From: a virus
Virus record (IMG/VR): IMGVR_UViG_3300016469_000571
Coordinates: 30,556 to 94,555 of that record
Length of the DNA: 64,000 nt
Direction: 5' to 3' (one strand)
The notes beneath the pieces are model-generated. The model did no database searches. It saw only the letters and a list, made by a program, of their open reading frames with translations, and had not been told where the DNA came from. The translations under genes and the position numbers were made by a program. This document shows positions 1-20,222 of the stretch, piece by piece (the stretch's first letter is position 1; the number at the start of each line of letters is the position of its first letter).

Positions 1-191
1 CTGGCTTTAGTGAATACACAGCAATACCAGCAACCAATTTAGGAGACCATACATCTTCTACAGCTAATACTATTTTTCAATACGCCCCTGGATTAACCCA
101 TGTTAAATCCAAATATGGATCTGGAGAAGTAAAACCAACAATAGATGCATCAACAGAAAGATATGCTGTTGATTTGCTGTATTCTGTTTAA
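1..191 (+). CDS. 3' end of a gene starting upstream of the window (...GFSEYTAIPATNLGDH...DLLYSV*), probably virion/fibre-associated
   Basis: Manual translation of the frame starting at nt 3 is open to TAA at 189-191; 45/62 aa are identical to the frame at 825-1013. Confidence 0.75.
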   Translation, partial: GFSEYTAIPATNLGDHTSSTANTIFQYAPGLTHVKSKYGSGEVKPTIDASTERYAVDLLYSV

Positions 192-724
192 GAAGCGTTT
201 AATCTTTGAAATTCAACAACACATTCTGCTTTTCTATCATCAGATCCAAATGCATCGACAACAACTGATAATTCATTTGATACAACAGAAATTGTAATTG
301 ACCAGCCAGTTGAATTGTCTAAATTAGTACTTGAGGTTTGATTTATAGATAAAACCCCTGCTTCTTGACTTATTAAACATTTTCTTTCAAAATAAGCTCT
401 TGTTTTTGTTCCAGTTGTATTAACTATTAAAATTTTTAATGTACACAAACATGAATCATCATCATTTATAGACAATTTACTATTATCTGGTAGTAATAAA
501 TCTATAGAGCCACCAGCAGCAGCATTTCCTGTTAATAAATAATTTTCTAAATTATTTACTTTGCTCCAATATGAACCATTACTTATATAAAGTTTTTCAC
601 TTATATTTCCATCTGATCTTAAATAAATAGATCCAGATGATTCTGAAGAGGTTGGATATCCGGTTCCAGCAGATATAGTTATTCCACTAGTTCCTATAAA
701 AAATGGATTATCTGTAGATGGTGC
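188..724 (-). pseudogene. Start-less reading frame paralogous to residues ~52-108 of the 1045..2301 protein, followed by a different C-terminus (silent cassette or gene fragment)
   Basis: The track ORF 188..475 extends without stops to 724 (APSTDNPFFIGTSGITISAG...GSIYLRSDGNISEKLYISNGSYWSKVNN, versus PSAENPFSIGTSGVTIEAG...GSLYLRYGGTINEKIYVTDGVSWQLVNN). In-frame TAA at 725-727; no in-frame ATG. Confidence 0.75.
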
Positions 725-1013
725 TTATTCATTATCATTTTCTTCATCATATACACTATCAGGATCAGATTTAAGACAATACTTATATATTGGACTGTAT
801 AATCAAACTACACAAGGATTAACAGGATTTAGTGAGTATACTGCAATACCGGCATCAAATTTAGGAGATCATACCAATTTTACAGGAAATACTAAATTTC
901 AATATACAAATGGATTAAGCTATGTAAACCCAGTATATGGATCTGGAGAAGTAAAACCAACTTTTATTGCTTTAACTGAGATTTATCCAGTAGATTTATT
1001 ATATTCAGTGTAA
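714..1013 (+). pseudogene. Start-less C-terminal fragment paralogous to the gene ending at 191
   Basis: Frame is open 627-1013 with no ATG/TTG and a GTG only as its last codon; reads VDGAYSLSF...GFSEYTAIPASNLGDH...DLLYSV*. The left boundary is approximate. Confidence 0.7.
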
Positions 1014-1044
1014 TTATTAATATAAAACTATATATTAAGGAAAT

Positions 1045-2301
1045 ATGGCTGATTCATTAACTGCAATAAATAATTTAAGAGATTCCGTAATTGCTATAGA
1101 AAAAGAGCTTGGAGTAAATCCTAAAAAAGTTTATTCTACTGTAAGAGCTAGACTGGATATCTTAGAGAATAGAATAAATAATCCAACAACACCAACACCT
1201 TCTGCCGAAAATCCTTTTTCTATTGGAACATCAGGAGTAACAATAGAGGCTGGGGAAGATGAGCCAACAACTCTTGCATTTCCAGGGTCTTTGTATTTAA
1301 GATATGGTGGAACTATTAATGAAAAAATTTATGTTACTGATGGAGTGTCATGGCAGTTAGTTAATAATTCATCTGTATCTGATGCAACAAATTTAATAAA
1401 AGGAATAATACAATTAACAAATGATTTGGGAGGTACAGCAACCTCTCCGAGCGTTGTTGGATTGCAAGGCAGATCTGTAAAAAATCAAGCTCCTAATAAT
1501 GGAGAAGTTTTGACTTGGGATTCTGTTAATTCAGAATGGATACCATCTCCAACTGCCGGATCTGTTCCGGATGCAGATAGTTCAACAAAAGGAATAATTC
1601 AACTAACAGCAGATTTAAGCGGAACAGCCGCTTCTCCAAAAGTAGTTGCTATTCAAAACAGAAATGTTAAAGATCAAGCCCCAAATAATGGAGAGCTTTT
1701 AATATGGAATTCTTTAAATAGTGAATGGACTCCTGGAGTTGTTCAAGACGCAGATGCATCTACAAAAGGATTAATACAATTATCTTTAGACATATCTGGA
1801 ACAGCAGATTCTCCTTTAGTATCTGGAATACTTGGATTTCCAATACTAGGAGAAGTATATAATGGCTATGGAATATGCTTTAATGAGCCAGATAATGAAT
1901 GGAATAATGTATTTATAGATGGATACTCTAATTTAGCTTTGTTTTCCGGAGTAGAAACTATTATAGGATCTGGATCAGAATCTTATAATAGTATAGGCGT
2001 ATTGCAAATCAATGCAGATGAATATGGTCAAAGTCCTACTTTTATATTTGAAGCTATATTTCAAGCAACATCAGGAGAAATAGCAGAGGTTAGATTATAC
2101 AATCTAACCGATGGCGCACCAGTATCAGGTTCTTTATTATCAACCTCTTCAAATATTTTTGAATATAATTCAGCAATTCTTACTTTATCAGGAAACAAAT
2201 TATATGAAGCTCAATGTAGAATAACAAATCCAACACCAGGAGTATCTGATGGTATAATTTGTGGTAATATTAATATAAGAGTTAAACTAAGAAACTTCTA
2301 A
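1045..2301 (+). CDS. Putative tail fibre / virion appendage protein with internal repeats
   Basis: AAGGA RBS; N-terminal heptad-like segment; three DAxxxxKG(I/L)IQLxxD(L/I)xGTAxSPxV repeats typical of fibre shafts. Confidence 0.65.
   Translation: MADSLTAINNLRDSVIAIEKELGVNPKKVYSTVRARLDILENRINNPTTPTPSAENPFSIGTSGVTIEAGEDEPTTLAFPGSLYLRYGGTINEKIYVTDGVSWQLVNNSSVSDATNLIKGIIQLTNDLGGTATSPSVVGLQGRSVKNQAPNNGEVLTWDSVNSEWIPSPTAGSVPDADSSTKGIIQLTADLSGTAASPKVVAIQNRNVKDQAPNNGELLIWNSLNSEWTPGVVQDADASTKGLIQLSLDISGTADSPLVSGILGFPILGEVYNGYGICFNEPDNEWNNVFIDGYSNLALFSGVETIIGSGSESYNSIGVLQINADEYGQSPTFIFEAIFQATSGEIAEVRLYNLTDGAPVSGSLLSTSSNIFEYNSAILTLSGNKLYEAQCRITNPTPGVSDGIICGNINIRVKLRNF
1381..1830 (+). repeat. Intragenic degenerate tandem repeat, ~2.5 units (starts 1381, 1570, 1747)
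   Basis: Repeated DA..KGIIQL..DL.GTA.SP.VV..Q.R.VK.QAPNNGE.L.W.S.NSEW.P; periods 189 and 177 nt. Confidence 0.9.
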
Positions 2302-2307
2302 GGTAAA

Positions 2308-3657
2308 ATGGCAAATGCTTATTTTTTAAATCATACAATAGATACAAGCACAACTAATAATTATTTTAATGTAATATGGAAATTAACAAGGGCAATGAAA
2401 TCTTCTGGTTGGACTACTGTATATCATTCAGATGGTGTTACAAAATCAAATACTGGTGATAGTTGGGGTGTTAACGTCAATCCAGCAGATGATACATATC
2501 CTGCTTTTAACTCCGCGGCTGCTTGGATCGTTATGAGAGGACCAAGCACAATAAAGCTAAACTTTACTACTGCTCCAGGCAATCTTGTACGAGGTGAAAG
2601 CATTACACAAGCTGTTAGCGGGGCTACAGGAGAATTATTAGGAATAGTTTGGGACGGGTCTACTGGCTGGGCTGTAGTAATGCCTAGAACTGGAACATTT
2701 GACGCAACAAATGTAATTACTGGTGGAATAAGTGGACAAACATTTACTCCAACATCAGTTCAAACTTATGTTCGTGAATTTATGTTTGCAAAATCAAGTG
2801 CAAACGTAACTTCAGGAACGATATATTACATTTGTGCAGAACAAACATCAGAATCAACTTCTTTATTTAGCACTCTTGCGGCTTCTGCTGGTTGTACCGC
2901 GACCATACCTCCTGGTTCTGGAGGTACAGGCAATTCTTTTCCATCTATAGGAGTTTGTTGTAAAGGTGCTGCGGGTTCTGTCTCACATAATTCTTTTTTT
3001 GTAAACAGTGGTATAGGAACATATGCTAATCTTTTAGCAGCAAATGCAACCCCAAGCTCAGGAATTTCAGCAGATGGTAGTTTTTGGTCTTTACCACAAA
3101 CTACATCAAGTCAAAGTTTAGCTTTTGGATTTGTTAGAGTTGAAGATTCTGAACCTGGAGATGTTGATCCATATGTAATATTTACCATGTCAAATACAAC
3201 ACCAACTACTTACACAAATAATACAACAGTAGGTGGAGCGGCTTTATTTACATTAGCCTCATATTTTTCATATATATCTTCAACAAACTCAATACAATTA
3301 TTCTGGGTTGGATATGTTGCTAGAGGTGTCGGTCAACCTACAAGAGAAAAGGCTGTCGCTTGGGTTGCATTAGCAACAAATTCTACTTACGTAAATACTG
3401 GGGTTAATACAAAACTATCTAACTATCCTGGAGCTGATTCTGTAACTCCTTATTTAAGGGAGTTTCCTTTATTAATTTCAAATAGAACCACAGAGGTTTG
3501 GCATAAAGGAAGACCAAGATGGTATTTTTACAGTACTGTTGGCGCTCATATGGATACATTAGATAGTAAAAGATTTGTTGTTATTTCTGCTAGAAATGGA
3601 AACACAAATCCTTCTTTTTGTGTTGGACCTTGGGATGGATCAACAAACCCACTATAA
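2308..3657 (+). CDS. Hypothetical T/S/G-rich virion structural protein
   Basis: 449-aa ORF with beta-rich composition, in an operon with the fibre-like gene. Confidence 0.55.
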   Translation: MANAYFLNHTIDTSTTNNYFNVIWKLTRAMKSSGWTTVYHSDGVTKSNTGDSWGVNVNPADDTYPAFNSAAAWIVMRGPSTIKLNFTTAPGNLVRGESITQAVSGATGELLGIVWDGSTGWAVVMPRTGTFDATNVITGGISGQTFTPTSVQTYVREFMFAKSSANVTSGTIYYICAEQTSESTSLFSTLAASAGCTATIPPGSGGTGNSFPSIGVCCKGAAGSVSHNSFFVNSGIGTYANLLAANATPSSGISADGSFWSLPQTTSSQSLAFGFVRVEDSEPGDVDPYVIFTMSNTTPTTYTNNTTVGGAALFTLASYFSYISSTNSIQLFWVGYVARGVGQPTREKAVAWVALATNSTYVNTGVNTKLSNYPGADSVTPYLREFPLLISNRTTEVWHKGRPRWYFYSTVGAHMDTLDSKRFVVISARNGNTNPSFCVGPWDGSTNPL

Positions 3658-3666
3658 TAGGATAAA

Positions 3667-4032
3667 ATGGCTGAATTAGGATTATCTGGCAGTACTACAG
3701 GTCAAGGCTCAACAACATTAGCTACAGGAGATTTAGGATTCAGAGAAGGTAGCTCCACATTTAAATATCAAAGCGATGCTATTAATATTAGAGATTATTT
3801 TGATAAATATGTTATAGATCCTAAATTTTCTGTTAATATAGAAAGCGTTCCTATAAGTCAGCCAGTAACATATTTTGTAATGAGAGGGTTAGATCCAGAC
3901 TGCATTACAGTAACATATAGATTTTGGACAGTATCAGGATCTCCAGACCTAAGCGGAGCTAGCTATTCTGGTCCTAAATGTGGCGTAAGCTCATTAACAG
4001 ATATCGTTGTTGTTCATAGATATACTATTTAA
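3667..4032 (+). CDS. Hypothetical protein
   Basis: AGGA RBS; 121 aa; stop overlaps the convergent gene. Confidence 0.7.
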   Translation: MAELGLSGSTTGQGSTTLATGDLGFREGSSTFKYQSDAINIRDYFDKYVIDPKFSVNIESVPISQPVTYFVMRGLDPDCITVTYRFWTVSGSPDLSGASYSGPKCGVSSLTDIVVVHRYTI

Positions 4033-4574
4033 ATTTTTGATAAAACAGTATCGACCAACATAATTCTTTCTTGCATATTTGCTGTATTAATAGGAATATA
4101 TTTTATATTTTCAAATTCAAATAAACATTTAATCATTGCATCAATTGTAATTACACCTTCCCAAGTTAACTCTTCTCTTACTCCATCTTGGGCTAATGTT
4201 TCTTTAGCTGGTCTAACAAAAAATACAATAGAATCTTTATTATTTAAAGATTTTACATATTGTTTGTACTCTTCTGTTTCTTTTATTGTGCTTAAAATAT
4301 TTGTATGATTAGCAGTATATGCTAAACAATCAATAGATCTATCTGAAACAAAAGAGCTATGTTTTTGCTCTTCAAGTAATTGTCTAAAAAATATAGCTTC
4401 TTGAAATGAATTAGCTACATTGATATCAGTTCTTAAAGTTTTTAGATTTAATTCTCTTTCCGATAAAATAGATCTAGCAACTTCTGTAATCATTGGAAGG
4501 TTATATTTTTGAGAAATATATCTGGCTAATGTTGTTTTACCTACGCTATGACTTCCTGCTAAATAAACTTTCAT
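4029..4574 (-). CDS. P-loop kinase, AAA_28/NadR-like nucleoside or nucleotide kinase
   Basis: GSHSVGKTT Walker A, EVAR and SDRSxDxLAY motifs. Confidence 0.75.
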   Translation of the reverse strand: MKVYLAGSHSVGKTTLARYISQKYNLPMITEVARSILSERELNLKTLRTDINVANSFQEAIFFRQLLEEQKHSSFVSDRSIDCLAYTANHTNILSTIKETEEYKQYVKSLNNKDSIVFFVRPAKETLAQDGVREELTWEGVITIDAMIKCLFEFENIKYIPINTANMQERIMLVDTVLSKI

Positions 4575-4582
4575 ACTTTTCC

Positions 4583-4759
4583 TTAAGTTGTTTCAATTTC
4601 GTTTAATATTTTTTCAAATTCTTCTTTGCTAAGAAGAACAGAATTTACAATAAAAGATTGTTGATTATTTATTAAATTTCTTGCTGAAATTGTTAATTGA
4701 ATTTTTTCATTTATTTTTTTAATTTCTAAATAGCTACCATCTTTGTATTCAATCTTCAT
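4583..4759 (-). CDS. Small hypothetical protein (58 aa, MKIEYKDGSYLEIKK...), not in the ORF track
   Basis: Manual translation; fills the gap between co-oriented genes. Confidence 0.65.
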   Translation of the reverse strand: MKIEYKDGSYLEIKKINEKIQLTISARNLINNQQSFIVNSVLLSKEEFEKILNEIETT

Positions 4760-4919
4760 TATAGCCGCCTAATAATGCTATTATTTTTTCATTTTTTAAA
4801 ACAACACCTAATACTTTTGGATTTATTAATTTATAATCTGAAAAATATTTTAAAGCATCATTTAAATAATAAAACCTACATATCTGATAATTTTTTATAT
4901 TTAATTTTAATTCATACAT
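4749..4919 (-). CDS. Small hypothetical protein (likely start MYELKL)
   Basis: Track ORF 4749..4973; AGGA precedes the ATG at 4919. Confidence 0.6.
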   Translation of the reverse strand: MYELKLNIKNYQICRFYYLNDALKYFSDYKLINPKVLGVVLKNEKIIALLGGYNED

Positions 4920-4920
4920 T

Positions 4921-5694
4921 TTATCCTGTAATAATTTCTGGACCAGATTTGTGTAAATAAATTGTATGCTCAAAATGAGCGCTTAAGTCTTTTGTAACAA
5001 CTGTCCAATTATCTTGGAGAGTTTTTGTTTCATTTGAAAACCCTAGACAAAATAAAGGCTCTATAGCAAAAGACATTCCTTCTTGCAGTCTAATACCAGA
5101 ATCTTTATCACTTCGATTAGAAACAAATGGTGAGTCATGTGGCTTGTTCATTGATATAAAATGACCACCATATTTTTCTATTACTTGAAAATTATAAGTT
5201 TTTCCAGTTTTATAAATAGAGTGACCTATTACTCCTAATTTAGCGCCTACTTTAACTTTAGAAATAGCTTCTTTTAAAGCAAGTTCTGTATATTTTACAA
5301 GATCTTGTGCTTTTTTATTTTCTCCTATTATTATTGTAATAGCAGAATCAGCTATTGCTCCTTCAAACGTTGCTCCTAAATCAAAACTAACTACATCTCC
5401 ATTAAAAAATGGCTTATCTTTTGGTATTCCATGAACAAGCTCATTGTTCACAGATATACAAACTGCTTCTGGAAATCCATGAAAGCCTTTAAATGTAGGT
5501 TGGCATTTATTGTCTAATATAAAGGTCTCAATTAATTTTGAACAACCTAAACCAGTTCTTTTGTGTGCCTCTGTTTTCAAAATAGACAAAGCTTGAGAAA
5601 CAACTTTTCCGGCTATTCTTTGTTTCTCAAGCCATTCACTATTATGAATAACACACAAAAGATTATCAACATAACCTTTTGAATGTATTTTCAT
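4921..5694 (-). CDS. map: Methionine aminopeptidase type I
   Basis: CISVNNELVHGIP, SFDLG, IADSA, GGH, AIEP and SAHFEHT; the D,D,H,E,E metal ligands are present. Confidence 0.95.
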   Translation of the reverse strand: MKIHSKGYVDNLLCVIHNSEWLEKQRIAGKVVSQALSILKTEAHKRTGLGCSKLIETFILDNKCQPTFKGFHGFPEAVCISVNNELVHGIPKDKPFFNGDVVSFDLGATFEGAIADSAITIIIGENKKAQDLVKYTELALKEAISKVKVGAKLGVIGHSIYKTGKTYNFQVIEKYGGHFISMNKPHDSPFVSNRSDKDSGIRLQEGMSFAIEPLFCLGFSNETKTLQDNWTVVTKDLSAHFEHTIYLHKSGPEIITG

Positions 5695-5695
5695 A

Positions 5696-5878
5696 TTACT
5701 CTTTTTTTTCTTCTTTAAATTGATTTATAATCTCTTCATTTAATTTATTATCTAAATCAGATAAAACCTCAATTAATTTAAAAGATGTTTTTTTGTTTGT
5801 TTTTGGATTTTCTATTTGATAATAAATATAATTTCTTATATTTATTAAATCAGATATTTCACTTATTTTCTTTTTCAT
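5696..5878 (-). CDS. Hypothetical protein
   Basis: 60-aa ORF in a tightly packed operon. Confidence 0.6.
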   Translation of the reverse strand: MKKKISEISDLINIRNYIYYQIENPKTNKKTSFKLIEVLSDLDNKLNEEIINQFKEEKKE

Positions 5879-6059
5879 TTAGCACTACATTTCCTTCTGG
5901 AGTTATTACATGATTTACTGTTAATCCATTGTTAATATAAACATTTAATATTTTATTTGTATATTTTAACTCTGCAATTTCTAATTGCAATTGAGCTATT
6001 TTTTTTTCTAATGTAGCTACATCAATAATTGCTCTATCTTTATCTGAGATTTTTTCCAT
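5859..6059 (-). CDS. Hypothetical coiled-coil protein
   Basis: 66-aa ORF with AAGG RBS. Confidence 0.65.
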   Translation of the reverse strand: MEKISDKDRAIIDVATLEKKIAQLQLEIAELKYTNKILNVYINNGLTVNHVITPEGNVVLNEKENK

Positions 6060-6065
6060 TTTACC

Positions 6066-7343
6066 TTATAATAATTTAGCAGCCTCGGTTGCCAATCTGG
6101 ATCTTTCACCTTTCATCAAAGTTACGTTTCCAAATATTTTAGAACCTTTGAAAGCTTTTATAACTTTAGATAAGCCGTTGTTCATTATATTTAGATTTTT
6201 TGAATCTATTTGATTAGCATCTCCAGTTAATACTATTTTGGTGCCATTTCCTGCTCTTGTTAGTAATGTTTTTATTTCGTGTTCGGAAAAGTTTTGAGCC
6301 TCATCAACAATAATAAAAGCATTTGGAATAGATCTACCTCTAGCAAATGTAATCAAATCTAATTCTATTTTACCTTTATTTACATACATTTCAAAATCTT
6401 TTTTCCATGTTTGACCTCTATCTTTGCTAGAGAATAGTAGCTCCATAGAATCCATAATTGCTGCAAAGTGTGGGTTTTTCTTTTCTTCCAAATCTCCTGG
6501 TAAAAATCCTATGTCATTTCCTACAACTTCAACAGGTCGATAAATAATTAACTTATCATAAGATTTATGATTTAAAACAGCTTCTAAGCCACAAGCTAAA
6601 ACACATAAGCTTTTACCTGAACCAGCAACACCTAAAGCAGTTACAAGCTCTACGCTTTTGTCTAAAGATAATTCCATTAAGCATAATTGATCTTTATTTC
6701 TTGGAGTTAAATTCCAAGGCTTATGATCTCTTACTAGTTTTAATTTACCATTTGCCATTTTTCTTGATAATCCATAATTTTTCTCTGAATTATCATTAAA
6801 TAATATAAATGAGTTTGTATCTAGTTCAAAAGGATCATCTACAGAACCATTTGATTGAAGTTCAACGCCTATAGTATAATCATCTGAATATTTCATATGA
6901 TTATTTAAATCTAAAAATGATATAGATTTTGTTCTATTAACCGCAGACATTTCAAATGCTTTTGCTTTAATTCTTAAATTAATATCTGCTGTAACTATAC
7001 ATACTTCTTTACCAGATAATCTTTGAATTTTAAAAGCACAGGATAAGATTTTATTATCTCCATATTTCATGTCTTGTAATAGATTTTCATCAAAATCAAA
7101 ATCTATTTTTATTCTAGAGTTTTTCTGTATGCTTACATTTGATTCTTTAGAGTCTGTAAAAATCTCATCTAAAACTCTAATTGCAGCTCTAGCATTTTGA
7201 GATACTTCTCCTTGGTATTTTTTTAATTTATCCAATTCTTCTAAAACTACATATGGAATAACAATTTGACAATCTTCAAATGAATATACAAGAGTTGGGT
7301 CTTCAACTAAAGCAGATGTGTCAAGTACGTAGATTTTGTTCAT
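6066..7343 (-). CDS. phoH: PIN-PhoH (PhoH2) family protein
   Basis: N-terminal PIN domain (VLDTS, VLEELD, DNKIL, TADINL) plus PhoH ATPase (GVAGSGKS, GFLPG, RGRS, DEAQN, GDxxQID). Confidence 0.93.
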   Translation of the reverse strand: MNKIYVLDTSALVEDPTLVYSFEDCQIVIPYVVLEELDKLKKYQGEVSQNARAAIRVLDEIFTDSKESNVSIQKNSRIKIDFDFDENLLQDMKYGDNKILSCAFKIQRLSGKEVCIVTADINLRIKAKAFEMSAVNRTKSISFLDLNNHMKYSDDYTIGVELQSNGSVDDPFELDTNSFILFNDNSEKNYGLSRKMANGKLKLVRDHKPWNLTPRNKDQLCLMELSLDKSVELVTALGVAGSGKSLCVLACGLEAVLNHKSYDKLIIYRPVEVVGNDIGFLPGDLEEKKNPHFAAIMDSMELLFSSKDRGQTWKKDFEMYVNKGKIELDLITFARGRSIPNAFIIVDEAQNFSEHEIKTLLTRAGNGTKIVLTGDANQIDSKNLNIMNNGLSKVIKAFKGSKIFGNVTLMKGERSRLATEAAKLL

Positions 7344-7351
7344 TAATGTCC

Positions 7352-7408
7352 TTTGAAAAAGAAAAAGATCCCTAACATTTTTCTATAATTATATGTTAAG
7401 GATCTTTT
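7352..7408 (-). terminator. Stem-loop with U-rich tail just upstream of phoH (terminator or attenuator)
   Basis: Minus strand AAAAGATCCTTAACAT-N14-ATGTTAGGGATCTTTT (16-bp stem, one G-U pair), then TCTTTTT. Confidence 0.6.
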
Positions 7409-7474
7409 AAGCTCATATTACTTTCATATGAAAAGTGATTTTATTACAGCAGGAATTATTTTATATATATGGCA

Positions 7475-7813
7475 TCACAAAATTGTATTAAATTCTATAA
7501 CGGCTTCTATATATATTTGATTTTTTCTATCAATTTCTGATAAATCTTTTTTTATTTTATAAAAAGGCTTTATCATTCTAGCTATTTCTTTATTTTCAAA
7601 GTATACAACAAAATCATCCTCGTCAAGGACTTTTAAGTTATTCTTTTTAAGAATTTCTTTTATTTTAATTTTATTATCAATGGTATCTTGATCAAACAAA
7701 CTACTTACATTTAATTCTAATGCTTCTAGAATTGATTTTAGAAATTTATTTTTTTCTTCTTTTTCAAAAGATTGCTTATCTTCTGACATGTTTAAAAAAT
7801 ATGTTTGCTTCAT
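7475..7813 (-). CDS. Hypothetical protein
   Basis: 112-aa ORF. Confidence 0.7.
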   Translation of the reverse strand: MKQTYFLNMSEDKQSFEKEEKNKFLKSILEALELNVSSLFDQDTIDNKIKIKEILKKNNLKVLDEDDFVVYFENKEIARMIKPFYKIKKDLSEIDRKNQIYIEAVIEFNTIL

Positions 7814-7828
7814 TAATTATATTTTTAT

Positions 7829-8476
7829 TTATGAAGAGCACATAACACATGCTTCTGGATTATCTAAAGAACATGCAAGCTCTTCTTGATTTTGAAGCTG
7901 TTTATTTTTTAATTCATCTTCTATTTTTCTATCTACTGTGAATTTTTGAGCACCCTTGTTTTGAGTTCTAGTATAATACACAATTGTTTTCAATCCTTTT
8001 TTCCATCCATAAAAATAAGCCGAAGTTAGTTTTGCAAATGTAGGGTCTTTAAAATAAAGATTTAAAGATTGTGATTGACATATAAATGCACCACGATCAG
8101 CAGACATGTCTATTAATGTTTTTTGAGACATTTCCCATACTGTTTTGTATAAAGATTTTAAATTATCTGGTATTTCATCAATGTTTTGAATTGATCCCTC
8201 GGATGCAATAATTTTTTGTCTTATTGTATCATCCCATAAATTTAAATCAATTAAATCATCTACTAGATATTTATTTATCATAATAAATTCTCCAGAAGAA
8301 GTTGATCTTTTATATAAATTGGATGTAATTGCTTCAAAACACTCTGTATTTCCCATGATTTGACTTGTATTATGAGAAACAACACCATTTGATAGCAAAT
8401 ATTGATGATTTTCATTCACTTCCAAATCCCATGTTGGAATCGCCTCTTGCAATTTTTTTATTGATTTTATTTTCAT
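7829..8476 (-). CDS. nrdA: RNR class Ia alpha, part 3: split-intein C half 2 (36 aa) plus C-terminal extein
   Basis: AAGGA RBS before ATG 8476; MKIKSIKK...TWDLEV..NHQY..NGVVSHN|[12 protein letters not shown]; [10 protein letters not shown] pair and terminal CVMC. Confidence 0.93.
8369..8476 (-). mobile_element. Split intein 2, C-terminal half
   Basis: Intein blocks F/G ending His-Asn, followed by Thr+1. Confidence 0.9.
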
Positions 8477-9368
8477 ATTCAATTCCTTTTTTTAATAAGC
8501 TTTTATTTATTACTTCTAATGACTCTTCGTCTGTAAAACTTTCCCAAATTATATAATAATCAAAACCTTTAGATTCTGCTAAATCTTTTTTTTCTTTATC
8601 TAATAAGTATACGGCGTTTGCATCTAATTGAACTTCTTTTTTTGAAAAAGAAAATCTTTTCCATTCAGACCATTCTTTGGAATTTAACTTTGATGGATTT
8701 GGATGAAACTTTTCACCATTATACTCAATAATAATTTTTAAATCAGGTATAGTAAAATCGTAATAACTTAATCGCTTTTTTTCTTTATTATAAATATAAT
8801 ACTCTTTATTTTCTTTAAAACCAAAGAAATGTTTTATGTTTTTTTGTTTTAAAAAACAAGATAATGGCTCAAAATATCTTAAAGATTTTTTAGAGGCATT
8901 GCAAAACTGAACTTTTTTCTTATTTAAGATTTGTTCTACTTTTACAATTGCCTCATCACTTGAATATCCTTTTTTTATCCAAAAATCTACTGATGATGTA
9001 TTTAAATTTTTTTCATAAAATTCTTTTCTTTTTAATTCAGCCTCTTCTTTAGAAAATCCTTTATTTATCCAATAGCTAGAATTAAAAACAGTATTTTTAG
9101 ATTTTTTATTTTTATATTCACTCCATTTTATTTTACCTAAATCATGCCCATATTTTTCAATATATTTTTCCTCTGTATGTTTTGATGTGTTTTGAAAAAG
9201 TCTAAATTTTTTTAGACCTTCTTCTTCTCCATATTTTTTTATAAAATTTTCTTTAGATGTTGCTTTAGATTTTTTATATTCTATTATTTTAATATTAGCC
9301 TCTTCTAAGCTAATATTATCTCTTTTTGAAATATAAATTGGATCATAAACACTATTTTTAACTTTCAT
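8412..9368 (-). CDS. Free-standing Vsr-like (PD-(D/E)XK-related) putative homing endonuclease with N-terminal repeats
   Basis: YDF...[11 protein letters not shown]...DKEK..LAESKGF.YYIIWE; repeats (F/Y)IxKYG and WIxKG(F/Y)SxxEA; lies between the intein halves. Confidence 0.8.
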
Positions 9369-9413
9369 AAAAGCTATATAGCATTATAGCTAACATCAAT
9401 AAATAAAAAAAAA

Positions 9414-10394
9414 TTACACTGAAACTATCTCATCATTTTCTGTTAGTTCATCAACTCTTTTCCAAATCTCTCCATTTGTAGATTTTACTAACAATAAATG
9501 ATTATTTGTAAATTTATATTTTTTACCATCTTCAAATTCTATTTCTATTACATCTTTGTATCCATTATAATGAATACCTGGAGATTTTTTTAGCCCATCT
9601 TTTGTTTGTACAAATACATCTTTTTCAAATGGAATTGTCATTTGCTGATCTATTTGTTCTATTCTTTTCCAATCTATATTTTGTTGATCCATTAAAGAAT
9701 ATAAGGAAATTGGATTAAAATTAGCATCTAATATTTCATTTTCTCCAGATTGGCAAGATGCTGTCGGCATTGGGGCTAATAATAAGCTATTTCTTAATCC
9801 ATTTTCTTTTATTTTTTGTTTTAGTGAATCCCAATTGTACATTTCTGGTTCTACTCCCCACATATCAAATTGTAATATTCCTTGAGATGCAGGGCTTCCA
9901 TCAAAAGTCTCATATTTTCCATTTTTTATAGCCAAATCACAAGATGTGTTTAGGGCACTAAAATATATTGTTTCAAATATATTTTTATTTAATTCTTTTG
10001 CATTATCAGAATCAAATGGAAATTTCATTTTTGCAAAAACATCTGCTAATCCTTGAACTCCTAAACCAATTGGTCTATGTCTAAAATTAGATTTTTTTGC
10101 GGCTTCTGTTGGATAAAATCCAATATCTATTACTTTATTTAAATTTTCAACTAGTATTTTTGTTATTTCAGATAGTTTATTGAAATTAAAATATAAATTA
10201 CCTTTCTTTCCAGAAAGGCAAGAAGGTAAAGATATTGACGCTAATGTACATACGGCAGTTTCATCTGGAGTGGATACTTCAAAAATTTCAGTACAATTAT
10301 GAACTAAAATATCATTTGCAAAAAAATTTGCAGATTCTTCGATAGTAAAATCATATACAGGTATTTCTTCTTCTAAAAATTCTATTTCTAACAT
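9414..10394 (-). CDS. nrdA: RNR class Ia alpha, part 2: intein C half 1, middle extein, intein N half 2
   Basis: ...ILVHN|CTEIFE..AVCTLAS..RPIGLGVQGLAD..GLRNSLLLAPMPTAS|CQSG...FTNNH...WKRVDEL. Confidence 0.93.
   Translation of the reverse strand: MLEIEFLEEEIPVYDFTIEESANFFANDILVHNCTEIFEVSTPDETAVCTLASISLPSCLSGKKGNLYFNFNKLSEITKILVENLNKVIDIGFYPTEAAKKSNFRHRPIGLGVQGLADVFAKMKFPFDSDNAKELNKNIFETIYFSALNTSCDLAIKNGKYETFDGSPASQGILQFDMWGVEPEMYNWDSLKQKIKENGLRNSLLLAPMPTASCQSGENEILDANFNPISLYSLMDQQNIDWKRIEQIDQQMTIPFEKDVFVQTKDGLKKSPGIHYNGYKDVIEIEFEDGKKYKFTNNHLLLVKSTNGEIWKRVDELTENDEIVSV
9417..9755 (-). mobile_element. Split intein 2, N-terminal half (113 aa)
   Basis: Cys1 after PTAS; block B TxxH (FTNNH); ends at a stop after ELTENDEIV. 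Confidence 0.9.
10296..10394 (-). mobile_element. Split intein 1, C-terminal half (33 aa)
   Basis: VYDFTIE..NFFANDILVHN followed by Cys+1; GAGGA RBS before the ATG. Confidence 0.9.
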
Positions 10395-10448
10395 TAATCC
10401 TCGTAAATATAATTTATTTTTATGTCACTTTGTTTATAATGGCTCAAA

Positions 10449-12038
10449 TCATGATAAAAGTAACACATCATCCTTATTTAAATATTGAGCCTCTACATAA
10501 CCTCTATTTTTTGTATAGATTTTATGATCTGGGGTACATTTTAATTCTTTCCCATTGTATTTTATTTTAATAACTTTAGATTTCTCACTTGTTAAGCAAG
10601 ATTTTAATATTTTATTAAATTTTAGCTCATTTGTATTTTCATTACAACTTAATATATATAAGTCTTGTGTTTTTAATAAATCATTTACCTCTTTCATTGA
10701 AAGAGTATACTCTTCCAAATCATTTGGATTTTTCTTTACTCTAACCATTGCATTTCCATCAATACATAAATTCGAGCTTTTAATTATTCCAATATTTTTT
10801 TGATTTGATTTTATATTTCCAGAGTCTTTTGCTAATAAATATGGCTGACCAGTTTCAATACATGATTCTAATATTTTAGACCAAATATCTCTTGCTTTTA
10901 CTTTTTTTACAAATTTATTTTCATTTTCATATTTTGTATATAATTTTTCAAAATCCTCTCCATATACATCAGATAAGCCTTTTGAAATATTAGGGTCCAT
11001 CAAAGACCAATCATCATCACTCTCTACTCTTTTAAAGAATAAATCAGGAGCCCAAATAGCTAGATTTAAATCTCTAGCCCTTAACTCTTCCTTACCATTA
11101 TTTTTTCTTAAATCTAAGAAATCCTCTATATCACAATGCCAAGGCTCTAAATATGCAGCAAATGCGCCTGGTCTTTTACCACCTTGATTAACATACCTAG
11201 CAGTCTCATTATATACTTTAAGCATTGGAATAATACCATTACTTGATCCACCAGTACCATATATATGGCTGCCTTTTGATCTAACATCGTGAATATGAAA
11301 ACCAATTCCGCCAGATGATTTTGATATCTTCGCAACTTCTTTTAAAGTATCAAAAATACCAGATATAGAATCTTCTTTATTTGCTATTAAATAGCATGAG
11401 TTTAATTGATTTTGAACAGTACCAGCATTGAACAATGTTGGTGTCGCATGAGTTGCTTCCAATTTTGACAATAAATTATATGTATTTAAGCAAGCATCAA
11501 TATCATCAAAATGAATACCACAAGCCACCCTCATCCACAAATGTTGAGGTCTCTCAACTATTTTATTGTCAATTTTTTGTAAATAACTTTTTTGTAAAGT
11601 TTTAAAACCAAAGTAATCAAACAAAAAATCTCTATTGTAATCAATAGCACTATCCAAAACATGAGAGTGCTTTTTAACAAATTTAATTACATCATTAGAA
11701 ATGAACTGTATTTTATTTCCATGAATATCTTGTTTATATGATAGCTTTTCAATTACATTTGAAAATGTACTATCTGTGTCTTTATGCAATCTAGTTATCT
11801 CTAATCTTAAATCTAGCTTATCATATTCTGGATTTTTTATTGACATAGAATATGCAGTTTCTATTGCTAGAGAATCTAACTCTATTGTAGTAACACCATC
11901 AAATAAACCACCAATGACTTTTTGAGAAATATAATAAGCATCAACGTTTTTTAAATCTTTTGATTGTCTTTGAATTCTTTTTAAAATCTTATCAAATTTT
12001 ACAGTTTCTTTTTGTCCATTTCTTTTAACAACAAACAT
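10449..12038 (-). CDS. nrdA: RNR class Ia alpha, part 1: ATP cone, N-terminal extein and intein N half 1
   Basis: MFVVKRNG ATP cone, ERPQH, ATPTLFNAG, QLNSCYL, GGIG, QGGKRPGA, ETGQPY, SSNL|CIDG. Confidence 0.95.
   Translation of the reverse strand: MFVVKRNGQKETVKFDKILKRIQRQSKDLKNVDAYYISQKVIGGLFDGVTTIELDSLAIETAYSMSIKNPEYDKLDLRLEITRLHKDTDSTFSNVIEKLSYKQDIHGNKIQFISNDVIKFVKKHSHVLDSAIDYNRDFLFDYFGFKTLQKSYLQKIDNKIVERPQHLWMRVACGIHFDDIDACLNTYNLLSKLEATHATPTLFNAGTVQNQLNSCYLIANKEDSISGIFDTLKEVAKISKSSGGIGFHIHDVRSKGSHIYGTGGSSNGIIPMLKVYNETARYVNQGGKRPGAFAAYLEPWHCDIEDFLDLRKNNGKEELRARDLNLAIWAPDLFFKRVESDDDWSLMDPNISKGLSDVYGEDFEKLYTKYENENKFVKKVKARDIWSKILESCIETGQPYLLAKDSGNIKSNQKNIGIIKSSNLCIDGNAMVRVKKNPNDLEEYTLSMKEVNDLLKTQDLYILSCNENTNELKFNKILKSCLTSEKSKVIKIKYNGKELKCTPDHKIYTKNRGYVEAQYLNKDDVLLLS
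10452..10766 (-). mobile_element. Split intein 1, N-terminal half (105 aa)
   Basis: Cys1 after SSNL; CTPDH block B; RGYVEAQYLNKDD; then TGA. Confidence 0.9.
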
Positions 12039-12047
12039 TTTTTCTCC

Positions 12048-13013
12048 TTAAAAATCTTCATCAAATTTAATTTTATTAGATTCTGCTGTTTTTCCTACAG
12101 ATGCTTTTTGATATTCAATAACTCTTTTTTCAAAGAAATTGCTTTTTGATTTCAAAGCAATCAACTCCATAAAATCAAATGGATTTTTTTCATTATATAT
12201 TTTAGAACAACCAAGCATTTGGCTCAATCTATCTGCACAAAATCTAACATAACATTTCATATCTTTTGAGTTCATTCCTATTAATTCAACTGGTAGTGAA
12301 TCCGAACAGAACTCTTCTTCAATAGCAACAGCTTCTTTTATTATTTGGTGTATTTTTTCTTCGCTTACTTTTTCATTTGAAATTGAATGCAATAAACAAG
12401 CAAACTCACAATGTTGTCCTTCATCAGTTGATATTGCTTCATTGCTGAAAGCAAGACCAGGCATCAATCCTCTTTTTTTCAACCAATAAATAGAACAAAA
12501 TGAAGAAGAGAAGAAAATACCCTCAACAGCAGCAAATGCAACTAATCTTTCTTCAAAAGAAGCGTTTGAATCTATCCATTTTAAAGCCCACTCAGCTTTC
12601 TTTTTTACAACTGGGATTGTTTCTATTGCATTTAGTAATTTACTTTTTTCTTCATTATTTTTAATATATGTATCAATTAATAAAGAATAAACTTCTGAGT
12701 GAATTCCTTCGATCATTAACTGATAACCATAAAATATTCTAGCTTCAGGTATTCCAACATCGTTGTAAAATCTCATTGCTAAATTTTCTCCAACAATACC
12801 GTCTGAAGCCGCAAAAAAAGCCAACACATTTGAAATAAAATGCTTTTCATTGTTTGTTAATTTGTTCCAATCATCTAAATCTCTAGACAAATCAACTTCT
12901 TCTGCCGTCCAAAAAGCAGCCTCGGCTTCTTTATAGGCTTTCCATATATTATTATACTTAATTGGAAATAAAACAAATCTTGAGTTATTTTTTTCTGTTA
13001 AATTGCTCATCAT
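12048..13013 (-). CDS. nrdB: RNR class Ia beta subunit
   Basis: [23 protein letters not shown] (radical Tyr), VEGIFF, DEGQH, NFFEKRV.EY. Confidence 0.96.
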
Positions 13014-16660: not shown

Positions 16661-17202
16661 ACAACCCTTGACAAAAATGATAAATCAAGATTTAATAACT
16701 TTATTTTTTCACAGTCGCTAGACTGTGACTGCATCATAAAGGCTAAATCACCATATGTCAAAATATTTTCATTTATAGTTTTAATTTTATTTATTAATTT
16801 TTCTGGTAATCTAGTAGCTCTATCTATTGTAGATAGTGTTTGATTTCTTAAATGTCTTGTTTTAAAATCTTTTAAAGAATACTCATTTGTTAAAAAACTA
16901 ATTGATGTCAATCTTCTTTTAGATTTTTTAACTTTGTTTTCAAAAATCCAATCAATATAATCTTTAAGAATAATTGGATCAGATGATAAGTTTATACATA
17001 ACTTATTTATTTGAAAAACTTCAAAAGATTTAGATGGCTGTGGTGCATTGAACTTAAATTCATATTCAATATTATATTGGTCTTTGTACTTTTTACAAAA
17101 ATAAGCCAATACACCTGTTTTTGACCAATTCTTACAATCAGTATTTTCTATCTCTATAAATTTTTCAAAAAACTTTTCATAATTTAAATTTGGAGCTTTC
17201 AT
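16657..17202 (-). CDS. Hypothetical protein in the replication cluster
   Basis: 181-aa ORF with ATGA overlaps on both sides. Confidence 0.7.
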   Translation of the reverse strand: MKAPNLNYEKFFEKFIEIENTDCKNWSKTGVLAYFCKKYKDQYNIEYEFKFNAPQPSKSFEVFQINKLCINLSSDPIILKDYIDWIFENKVKKSKRRLTSISFLTNEYSLKDFKTRHLRNQTLSTIDRATRLPEKLINKIKTINENILTYGDLAFMMQSQSSDCEKIKLLNLDLSFLSRVV

Positions 17203-19859
17203 TTTCCTAATATCTTAAACCCTTCCTCTTCTGTATAAGTTTGATACCTAATCAATGAATGCTTATCTAAAAACCTAGTATTGTCCATAAAATCTATGAC
17301 AGCTACTTTTGTTTTATCTTTATAAGCTCTAACAACTCGACCTATTCTTTGCAAAGCTCTTATTTTAGATTTACCTCCACCACCTAAAACTAATCCAGAT
17401 AATTTTGGCAAATCCATTCCAATATCAAATATTGTGCTCGCAATAATACAATCTATATTATCATCATTTAATGCTTGCTTTATTTCATTTCTCTTTTCAA
17501 GAGAATCGTTTCCATAAAGCAATTCACATCTTATTCCTTCATTTAAAAACTCTTTGTATAAAATCTTACCATGCTCTATTGTTTTAAATAAAACCAATGG
17601 TTTGTATTTTTTCTCTATTAAAGATTTTGTATTTTTAACTATTAAAGCATTTCTAATGTCATTATTTACTATATATTCTTTATAAACTTCTTGAAATGTT
17701 CTTGCTTGTATTGTTTGGTGTGGAACATTTACAAATTTTATAATAGGCTGAGCTAAAATACCTTTTTCAATTAATTCTGTAGCAGATACATTGCAAATAA
17801 TTCTACCAAGCATTGCTTCTGTAAGCAAATCACTACCATCATCTCTAAATGGCGTTCCTGATAATCCATATATTCTTTCTGGATCTATATATTTATAGAT
17901 TTGTTGTAATGTCTCACAAGTACATGCATGACATTCGTCTATAATATGAACTTTTGCTTCTTTTAAGCATTTAAGAATTTTAAATTTGTCTTGTATCTTT
18001 GGTGGAAGTTCTCTAACAGTTTCATCGTCTATTGTTAGTGATGCTTTTTTTACCTCTAATGCAGATCCTATTGTCCAAACAGATGCTATTGTTAATCTTT
18101 TAGGATTGCAAATACCATTTCCTATCCATCCTATTTCTTCTTTAAAGATTTTTGAAAATAAATCGTGAAATTGCTGAAGAAGATCAAGACCTATTACATA
18201 GATTATAGTAGGCTTGTTAAATTCTTTTGTCATATAAGCAGAAATTAAAGTATTATGATTTATAAATCCATTAGAAACAAAACTATGAGTCTCTGGTATG
18301 CAAAAATCATAATTATCAGACATTACTTTTTCTATATTAGAAACTTTTAAAAAAATCTTATCTTTTATAAGACTTTTAATTTCATTAACTTTTTCACTCT
18401 CTTCACAACTATCTAAATAATTCTCTAAATTTTTTTTAGATGGATTTCTATAAATACCCCAAGATTTAATAGTTTTTGTTTTTTTAAATCCTAACTTTAA
18501 TTTAGTATTTTTTATATTTGTTTTTTGAAATGGAATGCAATTAACATTTGGGTTAATATTTCTAATTTTAGAAATTATTTTTTTTATTTTATACCCATTT
18601 GGGTCTAAACCAATTTCATTCATAAATTTTGGAATGAATTCATTGTATATGCTTAATATAAAACAATCATTTCTTTTTGTTCTTTTTATTCTTTTTGAAG
18701 AAACAATTCCAAAATTTAATAAAATTGTTTGAATTTGATTTATTAAATTTTCATTAGACAAACCAACACATATTGCATTTGATTCTACCCAACCATCAGT
18801 CTCATATATTCCTCTTATAAACATAGCAAGAGGTTCTTTTTTTAACATTCTTATGCTTTTAGGAATTTCTTTATTTATAGACTTAGAATATTTAAAACCA
18901 TAATCATATAATTTTTTCCTATATGACGCCGAGTTTATAATTAGATTTTTTGCTTTTGACTTTGTATCACAAATTTTGTGTTTTATATTTATTTTATTTA
19001 AATAATTAGATGCAAAATCTAATATATGTTGATCCATATTTGTTAAAACAACTCTGTTTTTAACGCTTAAACCACCATCACCCATAAGAAGTCCATACCA
19101 ATAAGCCTCATCTAAGTCTAGATCATTAGATCCATACATTTGGGTATTGTATGATATAGCAACATAATCTTCTTTTGATATTTCAGATAATTTTTTCCAA
19201 TCTAATTGACCATTACCATTTATTACTTTAATTTTATGATTTAAAGTACCAGTTATTGAAAACCCATATCTTGTGGTAATTTTAATAGATTCAGAAACTC
19301 CATCATAATAAAAATGAGACGTAATGTCTTTGTTATTATTTGTTAAAGGTGTGGCAAGGTTAAGGTTAAGCTTTATGCTTTCTTTTTCTTTTATATTTAA
19401 ATTAAAGATATTTTTTAATTCTTCAAAAGAAAGTATTCCTTTTTCTGTAATATTCAAAGAATTCTTTGATATACACTTACCGCTGCCAGTAGCTGCTCTA
19501 ACTATTCCTATATTGGTTTGCTTGCATGTATCAACAATTTTTTGCTGATAATCTCTTAAATTATATCCAATATCATTGACAATTAATTCTGGCTCAATTG
19601 TTGGTACTTTTCTTTTATCTTCAATTGTATAATCAATTGAATTCTTTTCTAGAAATTCTTTTACTTTTACAAGTAAGCCGATTTGAAATTCATTTTTTTT
19701 ATTTAATAATCTTGTAACTCCGTCCCATCCATTTTTATATGCTTGTGTATATTCAACACCTAATTGTTTGTAGGATAATAAATTTGAAATTCTCTTCATA
19801 AGAATTTCGTCATCAGACTCTATTTTACAAGATTTGTTATTTTTAATTACTATCTTCAT
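17199..19859 (-). CDS. SF2 DExH helicase (UvsW/XPB-like) containing an intein
   Basis: LRDYQ, ATGSGK|T, IIDECH, GLSGTP, IFDIGMDLP, QRIGRVVR; the start may be 19859 or 19880. Confidence 0.9.
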   Translation of the reverse strand: MKIVIKNNKSCKIESDDEILMKRISNLLSYKQLGVEYTQAYKNGWDGVTRLLNKKNEFQIGLLVKVKEFLEKNSIDYTIEDKRKVPTIEPELIVNDIGYNLRDYQQKIVDTCKQTNIGIVRAATGSGKCISKNSLNITEKGILSFEELKNIFNLNIKEKESIKLNLNLATPLTNNNKDITSHFYYDGVSESIKITTRYGFSITGTLNHKIKVINGNGQLDWKKLSEISKEDYVAISYNTQMYGSNDLDLDEAYWYGLLMGDGGLSVKNRVVLTNMDQHILDFASNYLNKINIKHKICDTKSKAKNLIINSASYRKKLYDYGFKYSKSINKEIPKSIRMLKKEPLAMFIRGIYETDGWVESNAICVGLSNENLINQIQTILLNFGIVSSKRIKRTKRNDCFILSIYNEFIPKFMNEIGLDPNGYKIKKIISKIRNINPNVNCIPFQKTNIKNTKLKLGFKKTKTIKSWGIYRNPSKKNLENYLDSCEESEKVNEIKSLIKDKIFLKVSNIEKVMSDNYDFCIPETHSFVSNGFINHNTLISAYMTKEFNKPTIIYVIGLDLLQQFHDLFSKIFKEEIGWIGNGICNPKRLTIASVWTIGSALEVKKASLTIDDETVRELPPKIQDKFKILKCLKEAKVHIIDECHACTCETLQQIYKYIDPERIYGLSGTPFRDDGSDLLTEAMLGRIICNVSATELIEKGILAQPIIKFVNVPHQTIQARTFQEVYKEYIVNNDIRNALIVKNTKSLIEKKYKPLVLFKTIEHGKILYKEFLNEGIRCELLYGNDSLEKRNEIKQALNDDNIDCIIASTIFDIGMDLPKLSGLVLGGGGKSKIRALQRIGRVVRAYKDKTKVAVIDFMDNTRFLDKHSLIRYQTYTEEEGFKILGK
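18252..19475 (-). mobile_element. Contiguous intein with LAGLIDADG homing endonuclease (408 aa), inserted in Walker A
   Basis: GK|CISKNS...GTLNH...YGLLMGDG...IRGIYETDG...YDF..PETHSFVSNGFINHN|T. Confidence 0.93.
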
Positions 19860-19892
19860 CGCTATAAAAATATAGCGCATGTACTAGAATTG

Positions 19893-20222
19893 TCAATAAA
19901 ACATCAAATATACTTCAAATTTATTAATATTGTTAATATAAATTTTGTCAAAGCTTTCAAAATATTTTTTAATATGATCAATGTCTTTTGTTTCTAAAAT
20001 TTTATTTTCTATTTCTAGTAAATCATTTTTTGTACAACCAAGCTCAATTAAGGTATTAACAACTGATCTTACTAAATAAGTATTTGCGATTTGTAAACCG
20101 ATCTTTTTTAAAGATTCTATATCTTTAAATTTTTTCTTAGAATTTTCTTTTAACAAAGTATCAGTAAATATATCAATACTTGATATTACTAGTTTATTTT
20201 CTTTTGTCGATAACATTTCCAA
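19893..20222 (-). CDS. Hypothetical protein
   Basis: 109-aa ORF. Confidence 0.65.
   Translation of the reverse strand: MEMLSTKENKLVISSIDIFTDTLLKENSKKKFKDIESLKKIGLQIANTYLVRSVVNTLIELGCTKNDLLEIENKILETKDIDHIKKYFESFDKIYINNINKFEVYLMFY

Follow-up and report, generated by a model that had tools for sequence, protein, structure and literature searches.

How does a phage make ribonucleotide reductase (RNR), which supplies the precursors of DNA, when nrdA, the gene for the enzyme's large subunit or alpha chain, is broken into three open reading frames (ORFs)? The question is raised by an uncultured, AT-rich phage, IMG/VR record IMGVR_UViG_3300016469_000571, of which we analyzed positions 30,556-94,555. 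This 64,000-nt stretch (27% G+C) is the window, and all coordinates below are positions in it. Judging from sequence, we consider it very likely that NrdA would be built from three polypeptides, with both joints splicing in trans through two different split inteins. The locus lies entirely on the minus strand, with nrdB coming first, then pieces 1 and 2, the endonuclease gene and finally piece 3. Its features are as follows; IntN and IntC are the N-terminal and C-terminal halves of an intein.

12048-13013, minus strand: nrdB, RNR small subunit, 321 aa (Pfam PF00268, E 1e-106)
10449-12038, minus strand: ORF1, 529 aa, extein 1 (424 aa) plus IntN1 (105 aa), TGA stop
10767-12038, minus strand: extein 1, 424 aa, ending ...IIKSSNL (Pfam PF03477, PF00317 and PF02867 positions 2-213)
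10449-10766, minus strand: IntN1, 105 aa plus TGA, with Cys1 (CIDGNAMV...) and block B TPDH (TIGR01445, NrdJ-1 homology)
10395-10448, minus strand: spacer of split 1, 54 nt, with GAGGA immediately ahead of the ORF2 ATG
9414-10394, minus strand: ORF2, 326 aa, IntC1 (33 aa), extein 2 (180 aa) and IntN2 (113 aa)
10296-10394, minus strand: IntC1, 33 aa, MLEIEF...NDILVHN (TIGR01443, 28.0 bits)
9756-10295, minus strand: extein 2, 180 aa, CTEIFE...APMPTAS (Pfam PF02867 positions 212-392; phiST NrdA alignment)
9414-9755, minus strand: IntN2, 113 aa plus TAA, with Cys1 (CQSGENEIL...) and block B TNNH (Pfam PF14890)
8412-9368, minus strand: predicted free-standing homing endonuclease gene within split 2, 318 aa (phrog_22677 match; fold)
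7829-8476, minus strand: ORF3, IntC2 (36 aa) plus extein 3 (179 aa), ATG at 8476
8369-8476, minus strand: IntC2, 36 aa, MKIKSIKK...NGVVSHN, with a Lys-rich N-terminus (TIGR01443, 22.6 bits)
7829-8368, minus strand: extein 3, 179 aa plus stop, TSQIMG...YYTRT...CVMCSS (Pfam PF02867 positions 392-523; yeast Rnr1 and human RRM1 alignments)

The architecture given by the original prediction, which was made from the letters of the window, is exact, on the minus strand, in its coordinates and its piece lengths (exteins of 424+180+179 = 783 aa; intein halves of 105/33 and 113/36 aa). The 54-nt gap between ORF1 and ORF2 holds the two further in-frame stops it described, a TAA and a TGA at 10395-10448, both in the frame common to the two ORFs. 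ORF2 and ORF3 have their own Shine-Dalgarno (SD)-like sites, as it had also said, GAGGA for ORF2 and AAGGA 7 nt ahead of the ORF3 ATG; ORF1 likewise has AAGGAG 5 nt ahead of its ATG. The three-ORF description was sound as far as it went, but it overlooked the 318-aa ORF at 8412-9368 between ORF2 and ORF3. We place the start of ORF3 at ATG 8476 rather than at the TTG 8482 offered by the ORF caller because all relatives begin MKIK.

The stops that separate the pieces appear to be genuine. The same 529-aa ORF1, with one substitution, is encoded on an 85-kb contig assembled independently from other sources, and identical copies of ORF2 and of the endonuclease are known from three sources; assembly error is therefore disfavored. 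Recoding does not explain the spacer because TAA and TGA end all 42 window frames of at least 150 aa (24 TAA, 18 TGA, 0 TAG). Interruption by a group I or group II intron was also considered and rejected, as no Rfam family matched between 7000 and 14000 at E up to 0.1, and so no ribozyme or known intron was found there.

By alignment, the locus minus its inserts encodes a normal class Ia alpha chain of eukaryote-like type. The normal length claimed for the product is borne out, since the 783-aa joined product can be aligned along its whole length with the 789-aa NrdA of Cellulophaga phage phiST, an uninterrupted protein, at 51% identity. This alignment is gapless at both joints, IKSSNLCTEIFE against IKSSNLCIEINE at the first and MPTASTSQIMGN against MPTASTSQILGN at the second. 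The Pfam RNR barrel PF02867 runs contiguously over the three ORFs (positions 2-213, 212-392 and 392-523), and extein 1 contributes the ATP cone, the all-alpha domain and the first part of the barrel. The best solved relatives of the joined product are yeast Rnr1 and human RRM1, in an alignment that takes in the ...DNPEAC.MCS tail. The catalytic residues of RNR are kept: N-x-C-x-E, the Tyr-Tyr pair and the C-terminal CxxC tail, the last two in extein 3. The gapless full-length phiST alignment, the match to Rnr1 and RRM1 and the adjoining nrdB together support the assignment; an ATP cone, an all-alpha domain, a ten-stranded barrel and a neighboring nrdB, the marks of class Ia alpha, are all present by Pfam and NCBIfam. 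The phage collection holds no close DNA relative, the best matches being nrdA genes without interruption from Cellulophaga and Tenacibaculum phages, at ~66% identity.

Two different split inteins cut nrdA, as had been proposed, and intein models (PF14890, TIGR01443 and TIGR01445) match all four halves. IntN1 scores 26.6 bits against TIGR01445 (cut-off 24.5), IntC1 and IntC2 score 28.0 and 22.6 bits against TIGR01443 (cut-off 15.6), and IntN2, on ORF2, scores 44.7 bits against Pfam PF14890 (cut-off 35.8). Both inteins have the residues of a class 1 split intein: Cys1, TxxH, HN and a Cys or Thr at +1. Intein 1 combines Cys at position 1, block B TPDH, a C-terminal VHN and Cys at +1, and intein 2 combines Cys at position 1, block B TNNH, a C-terminal SHN and Thr at +1 (PTAS/CQSG and VVSHN/TSQI, where the slash marks the junction). 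IntN1 and IntN2 show no similarity to each other (E 0.81). Intein 1 is, by sequence, a homologue of the characterized NrdJ-1 split intein: IntN1 matches PDB 8ubs with E 4.7e-11, including the stretch ...CTPDH.(I or V)YTKNRGYV... Its halves, of 105 and 33 aa, lie on separate ORFs with three stops between them, split at the endonuclease site.

The splicing residues are conserved in diverged relatives. In the alignment of ORF2 (20 middle pieces, 42-53% identity), H32, N33, C214, N298 and H299 are invariant and C34 nearly so. IntC2 residues S34, H35 and N36 are invariant in six loci, and Cys1 of IntN1 is conserved in loci L004, L005, L006 and L021. The two intein pairs have opposite charge polarity. 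Intein 1 joins an IntN1 of net charge +3 (+5 in its second half) to an IntC1 of -9; intein 2 joins an IntN2 of -8 to an IntC2 that is neutral overall and carries +3 in its Lys-rich first 12 residues. IntC1 and IntN2, both on piece 2, are both strongly negative.

Both insertion points fall in active-site motifs. Site 1 (NL/C) lies directly before the thiyl-radical Cys, so that the Cys of N-x-C-x-E is at once residue 1 of extein 2 and the +1 nucleophile of intein 1. Site 2 (PTAS/TSQ) aligns between Ser610 and Thr611 of yeast Rnr1, in a highly conserved motif that we take to line the substrate-binding pocket. NrdA would probably stay inactive until both splicings are done, making splicing obligatory, because a folded intein at either active-site motif should block activity. 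Other inteins also occupy site 1 in further IMG/VR loci: contiguous inteins of the form CVAPET..., 405-1100 nt long, sit at NL/C in L011, L033, L035, L038, L047 and L083, and several of them end in Gln, not Asn, ahead of the +1 Cys. We considered these as relatives of intein 1 and rejected them, as they are contiguous and unrelated.

Split 2 houses a free-standing gene whose product is, on its modeled fold, a Vsr-like (EDxHD) homing endonuclease with predicted activity. The ORF takes up the space between ORF2 and ORF3 and shares its final 65 nt with the start of ORF3. Its N-terminal part is helical and residues 156-296 form a Vsr-like nuclease domain; it matches phrog_22677 and has 2087 relatives in a representative library. 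D204, E215, H222 and K260 are invariant and D257 nearly so, within the motif YDF..IIEY.G...HPNP...D..K. Searches by sequence returned no Pfam family, no PDB match and an NCBIfam match at chance level only. The AlphaFold2 model (pLDDT, the predicted local distance difference test score, 85) is more informative. Residues 156-296 superpose on E. coli Vsr (1cw0) with Z 9.2 and a root-mean-square deviation (rmsd) of 3.3 Å over 112 residues, and the model superposes on the catalytic domain of I-Bth0305I (3r3p) with Z 9.2 and rmsd 2.8 Å over 95 of 97 residues at 21% identity. Both Z scores are well above the next structural matches (VIA re-alignment). Plain Foldseek also ranked Vsr first, but with weak E-values, 0.05 at best. 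In L006, L007, L021 and L041 the gap of split 2 likewise contains a homologous endonuclease gene, of which L005 has only remnants. The 45-nt gap before the endonuclease ATG (9369-9413, minus strand) contains a small inverted repeat, AGCTATA...TATAGCT. Occlusion of the ribosome-binding site by such a hairpin was dropped as an idea, the folding energy being no better than that of shuffles (z -0.21).

The arrangement recurs widely in metagenomes. A search with ORF2 returned thousands of metagenome relatives, and layouts were classified for the best 120. The middle-piece layout of IntC1, extein and IntN2 is present in 44 of these (325-375 aa, 40-53% identical). Another 28 have IntC1 followed by exteins 2 and 3, which is split 1 only; 19 are uninterrupted at site 1 and end in IntN2, which is split 2 only; and two (P0008 and P0031) combine split 1 with a contiguous intein 2. 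The IMG/VR loci L005, L006 and L021 keep the complete set of pieces and their order, the two halves of intein 1 being ~1 kb apart there. The pattern is not a product of chance: both halves of both pairs match intein models, and dozens of independent contigs share the layout. Cellular genomes differ, in that the best 80 relatives there, mostly Bacteroidota, are uninterrupted at site 2, and IntC1 appears only in two short contigs of metagenome-assembled genomes. No three-piece form was seen among those 80, which is not proof of absence.

Some relatives go further than the window locus. L006 (IMGVR_UViG_3300028374_000002, 134-7616) and L005 carry nrdA in four pieces, with a further split in extein 1 (...AVDQ/C). 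In L006 this extra split has its own Vsr-like endonuclease, and its IntC ends HN followed by Gly, with ~290 nt to the next RNR frame; because of the HN/Gly junction and this distance, the extra joint may not be a textbook one. L004 (IMGVR_UViG_3300036715_002378, 3426-6909) is a class II-like RNR in three ORFs (NPC/C..., VHN/SEI) with an HNH-like ORF in split 2 and a 265-nt gap at split 1. Since it carries homologues of both inteins, the inteins move between RNR classes.

On a FastTree phylogeny of extein 2, the intein state changes at least 20 times at site 1 and at least 11 times at site 2, and near-identical exteins differ in intein state, for example P0010 and P0045. The window extein 2 groups, without strong support, with split-1-only alleles such as P0018. 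Tentatively, this placement would suit a history in which intein 1 is older and lost its endonuclease, and intein 2 with its endonuclease was gained later in the window lineage.

Together, these features suggest a route to a seamless enzyme. After translation, the halves of intein 1 would bring pieces 1 and 2 together (IntN1 with IntC1), and those of intein 2 would do so for pieces 2 and 3 (IntN2 with IntC2). Each reassembled class 1 intein would undergo an N-S acyl shift at Cys1 and then a transesterification in which the +1 residue, Cys at the first joint and Thr at the second, is the acceptor. Asn cyclization would then release a 783-aa NrdA with ...SSNL-CTEI... and ...PTAS-TSQI... restored. 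Unrelated sequences and opposite charges would keep the two inteins orthogonal and stop the middle piece, which bears IntC1 and IntN2, from cyclizing; the charge polarity in particular may help here. At the DNA level, the Vsr-like endonuclease of split 2 would spread its element; split 1 has no endonuclease gene in its 54-nt spacer. The ORF structure, the motifs, the homology, the recurrence, the endonuclease fold and the colinearity of the product are established directly; from these we infer that the halves dock and splice, that the pairs are orthogonal, that the endonuclease is active and how the two splits arose.

Several observations weigh against this reading. IntN2 falls short of the TIGR01445 cut-off (16.6 against 24.5 bits), and no solved structural relative of it was found by sequence. 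ORF1 and ORF2 share one frame across the spacer, as expected for a recently broken contiguous mini-intein. The endonuclease lacks ~110 N-terminal aa present in most relatives, although shorter relatives exist, and no SD-like site precedes its ATG; because of this truncation and the missing site, the gene may be weakly expressed or decaying.

The best of the rival explanations is that the pieces assemble unjoined, with one or both intein pairs serving only as docking domains in the manner of the NrdA-a and NrdA-b tails of phage Aeh1. That phage is reported to have a split, unspliced and active NrdA (PMC3045599; cited in PMC2677866), and the HN/Gly junction of the extra split in L006 indicates that some joints in the family may not splice. 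Both window joints nevertheless keep all splicing residues, whose conservation extends to relatives only 42-53% identical. Both insertion points also lie in conserved active-site motifs, where an unspliced, folded intein of ~140 aa would presumably be hard to tolerate, given the structure of RNR. We regard assembly without joining as unlikely.

Alternatively, nrdA could be decaying after breakage by mobile elements, with the phage relying on host RNR. The short endonuclease and the endonuclease remnant of L005, which shows that decay occurs in the family, fit this view. The three nrdA ORFs, however, are intact, have SD-like sites and keep the RNR catalytic residues, and an intact nrdB adjoins them. 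The same layout with conserved intein residues in many diverged lineages suggests purifying selection. Decay is accordingly a very improbable account of the locus. Least credible of all is that split 1 is a contiguous mini-intein whose apparent stops are sequencing errors or are bypassed: the shared frame of ORF1 and ORF2 and an entire insert of 471 nt, about the size of a mini-intein, favor it, but split 1 has three stops of two kinds (that of ORF1 and two in the spacer), ORF2 has its own GAGGA and an ATG exactly at the IntC1 start of its relatives, the intein 1 halves of relatives lie ~1 kb or 265 nt apart, an independent assembly gives the same ORF1, and the nearest solved homologue, NrdJ-1, is described as a fractured-gene split intein (PMC2677866).

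If trans-splicing from three pieces is correct, two split inteins coexist without cross-reaction in one essential protein, a property for which protein engineers must screen. The locus would then offer a candidate ready-made tool pair, a relative of NrdJ-1 and an uncharacterized intein with Thr at +1. It also makes intein turnover visible, with near-identical exteins that have or lack each intein and with endonucleases that are full, shortened, remnant or gone. There is a practical consequence as well: gene callers label the pieces as hypothetical proteins or partial RNRs, so surveys of phage RNR miscount. A more ambitious set of claims is doubtful and offered tentatively, namely that no natural case of tandem protein trans-splicing, with an essential enzyme assembled from three polypeptides by inteins whose orthogonality has evolved, was described before; that the charge-swapped pairs were selected against cyclization and mis-joining of the middle piece; that the requirement for two active-site reactions, one with the radical Cys as nucleophile, acts as a post-translational gate on deoxynucleotide (dNTP) synthesis during infection; and that the site-2 intein, with its Thr at +1 and its Vsr-like endonuclease, represents a new family of natural split inteins that could be used alongside NrdJ-1.

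Intact nrdB ends 9 nt upstream of nrdA piece 1, and because of this short distance the two probably form a single operon. When this DNA of 27% G+C was scanned for promoters and terminators, promoter-like sites were fewer than in shuffles, and no useful terminator emerged. Directly downstream of the nrdA locus is a gene for a PIN-PhoH fusion protein of 425 aa (6066-7343, minus strand). The phage has a second intein-bearing gene, for a UvsW-type helicase of 893 aa (17199-19880, minus strand), in which an ordinary full-size contiguous intein with a LAGLIDADG domain sits directly after the Walker A motif GSGK (CISKNS...FINHN/T). It also encodes a TubZ/PhuZ-like tubulin (20194-21480, minus strand; Pfam Tubulin and TubZ-like_C). 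CheckV puts the completeness of the 94.5-kb record at 22%, as might be expected if the phage is very large.

Taken singly, both splits are of known kinds. Fractured genes, described by Dassa, London, Stoddard, Schueler-Furman and Pietrokovski in 2009, include NrdA-1 to NrdA-7, NrdJ-1 and gp41-7 (PMC2677866). The NL/C point directly N-terminal to the thiyl-radical Cys is the site of the seven fractured NrdA loci (PMC2677866). Split 1 shares this integration point and carries a homologue of NrdJ-1. The full fractured-gene arrangement of IntN, gap, free-standing Vsr-like endonuclease and IntC on one strand is seen at split 2, with a non-coding gap of 45 nt against 27-51 nt in the fractured genes of PMC2677866. 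Split 1, without an endonuclease, resembles instead the gp41-7 locus of the same study, so only split 2 is a fractured gene in the full sense. The published loci are each broken in two, whereas the window nrdA is broken in three by two different split inteins; the published NrdA loci share one integration point, and PTAS/TSQ is not among them. The nearest hint of a multiple break there is an incomplete DnaE-1 locus with part of an additional intein.

The components have individual counterparts too. NrdJ-1 (PDB 8ubs and 9omb; a fast orthogonal tool, PMC7090010) is, like intein 1, split at the canonical endonuclease site. Its host is a class II RNR, and its insertion point there is shifted downstream by one residue (PMC2677866), whereas intein 1 of the window precedes the Cys and uses it as +1; the homologous class II locus L004, unlike the window, has Ser at +1. 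Vsr-like endonucleases with an extra invariant Glu are found inside fractured genes (PMC2677866), and the window endonuclease shares this Glu. I-Bth0305I (PDB 3r3p; PMC3239194) has the same Vsr-like catalytic fold with conserved Asp, Glu, His and Asp, but is encoded in a group I intron, whereas the window enzyme is free-standing within a split intein and has a different helical N-terminal part. In phage Aeh1, as PMC3045599 describes it, nrdA is likewise split by a free-standing homing endonuclease gene (nrdA-a/mobE/nrdA-b) and the pieces are made separately. That account has them without an intein and associating non-covalently, whereas both window breaks are flanked by canonical intein halves. 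We rejected a split of the intein-less Aeh1 type because each break lies between intein halves that have the full set of catalytic residues.

The three-piece nrdA is thus a predictable combination of known elements that is common in phage metagenomes, and in the publications examined the combination is described only for engineered proteins and is apparently undescribed in nature. The original prediction knew of no characterized natural case, and this part of it stands: in the literature covered, outside which most subscription journals fall, we found no natural protein that two split inteins assemble from three pieces, and PMC2677866, PMC7090010 and 10.1101/2025.01.02.630785 contain none. The locus itself is not unique, given the 44 of the best 120 ORF2 relatives with the same middle piece. 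Its closest functional parallel is engineered multi-fragment ligation (PMC7090010), in which the middle fragment likewise carries the IntC of one pair and the IntN of another, and a single chain results from two orthogonal trans-splicing reactions. That system is man-made, whereas the window arrangement is natural, belongs to an essential phage enzyme and has been kept in many lineages.

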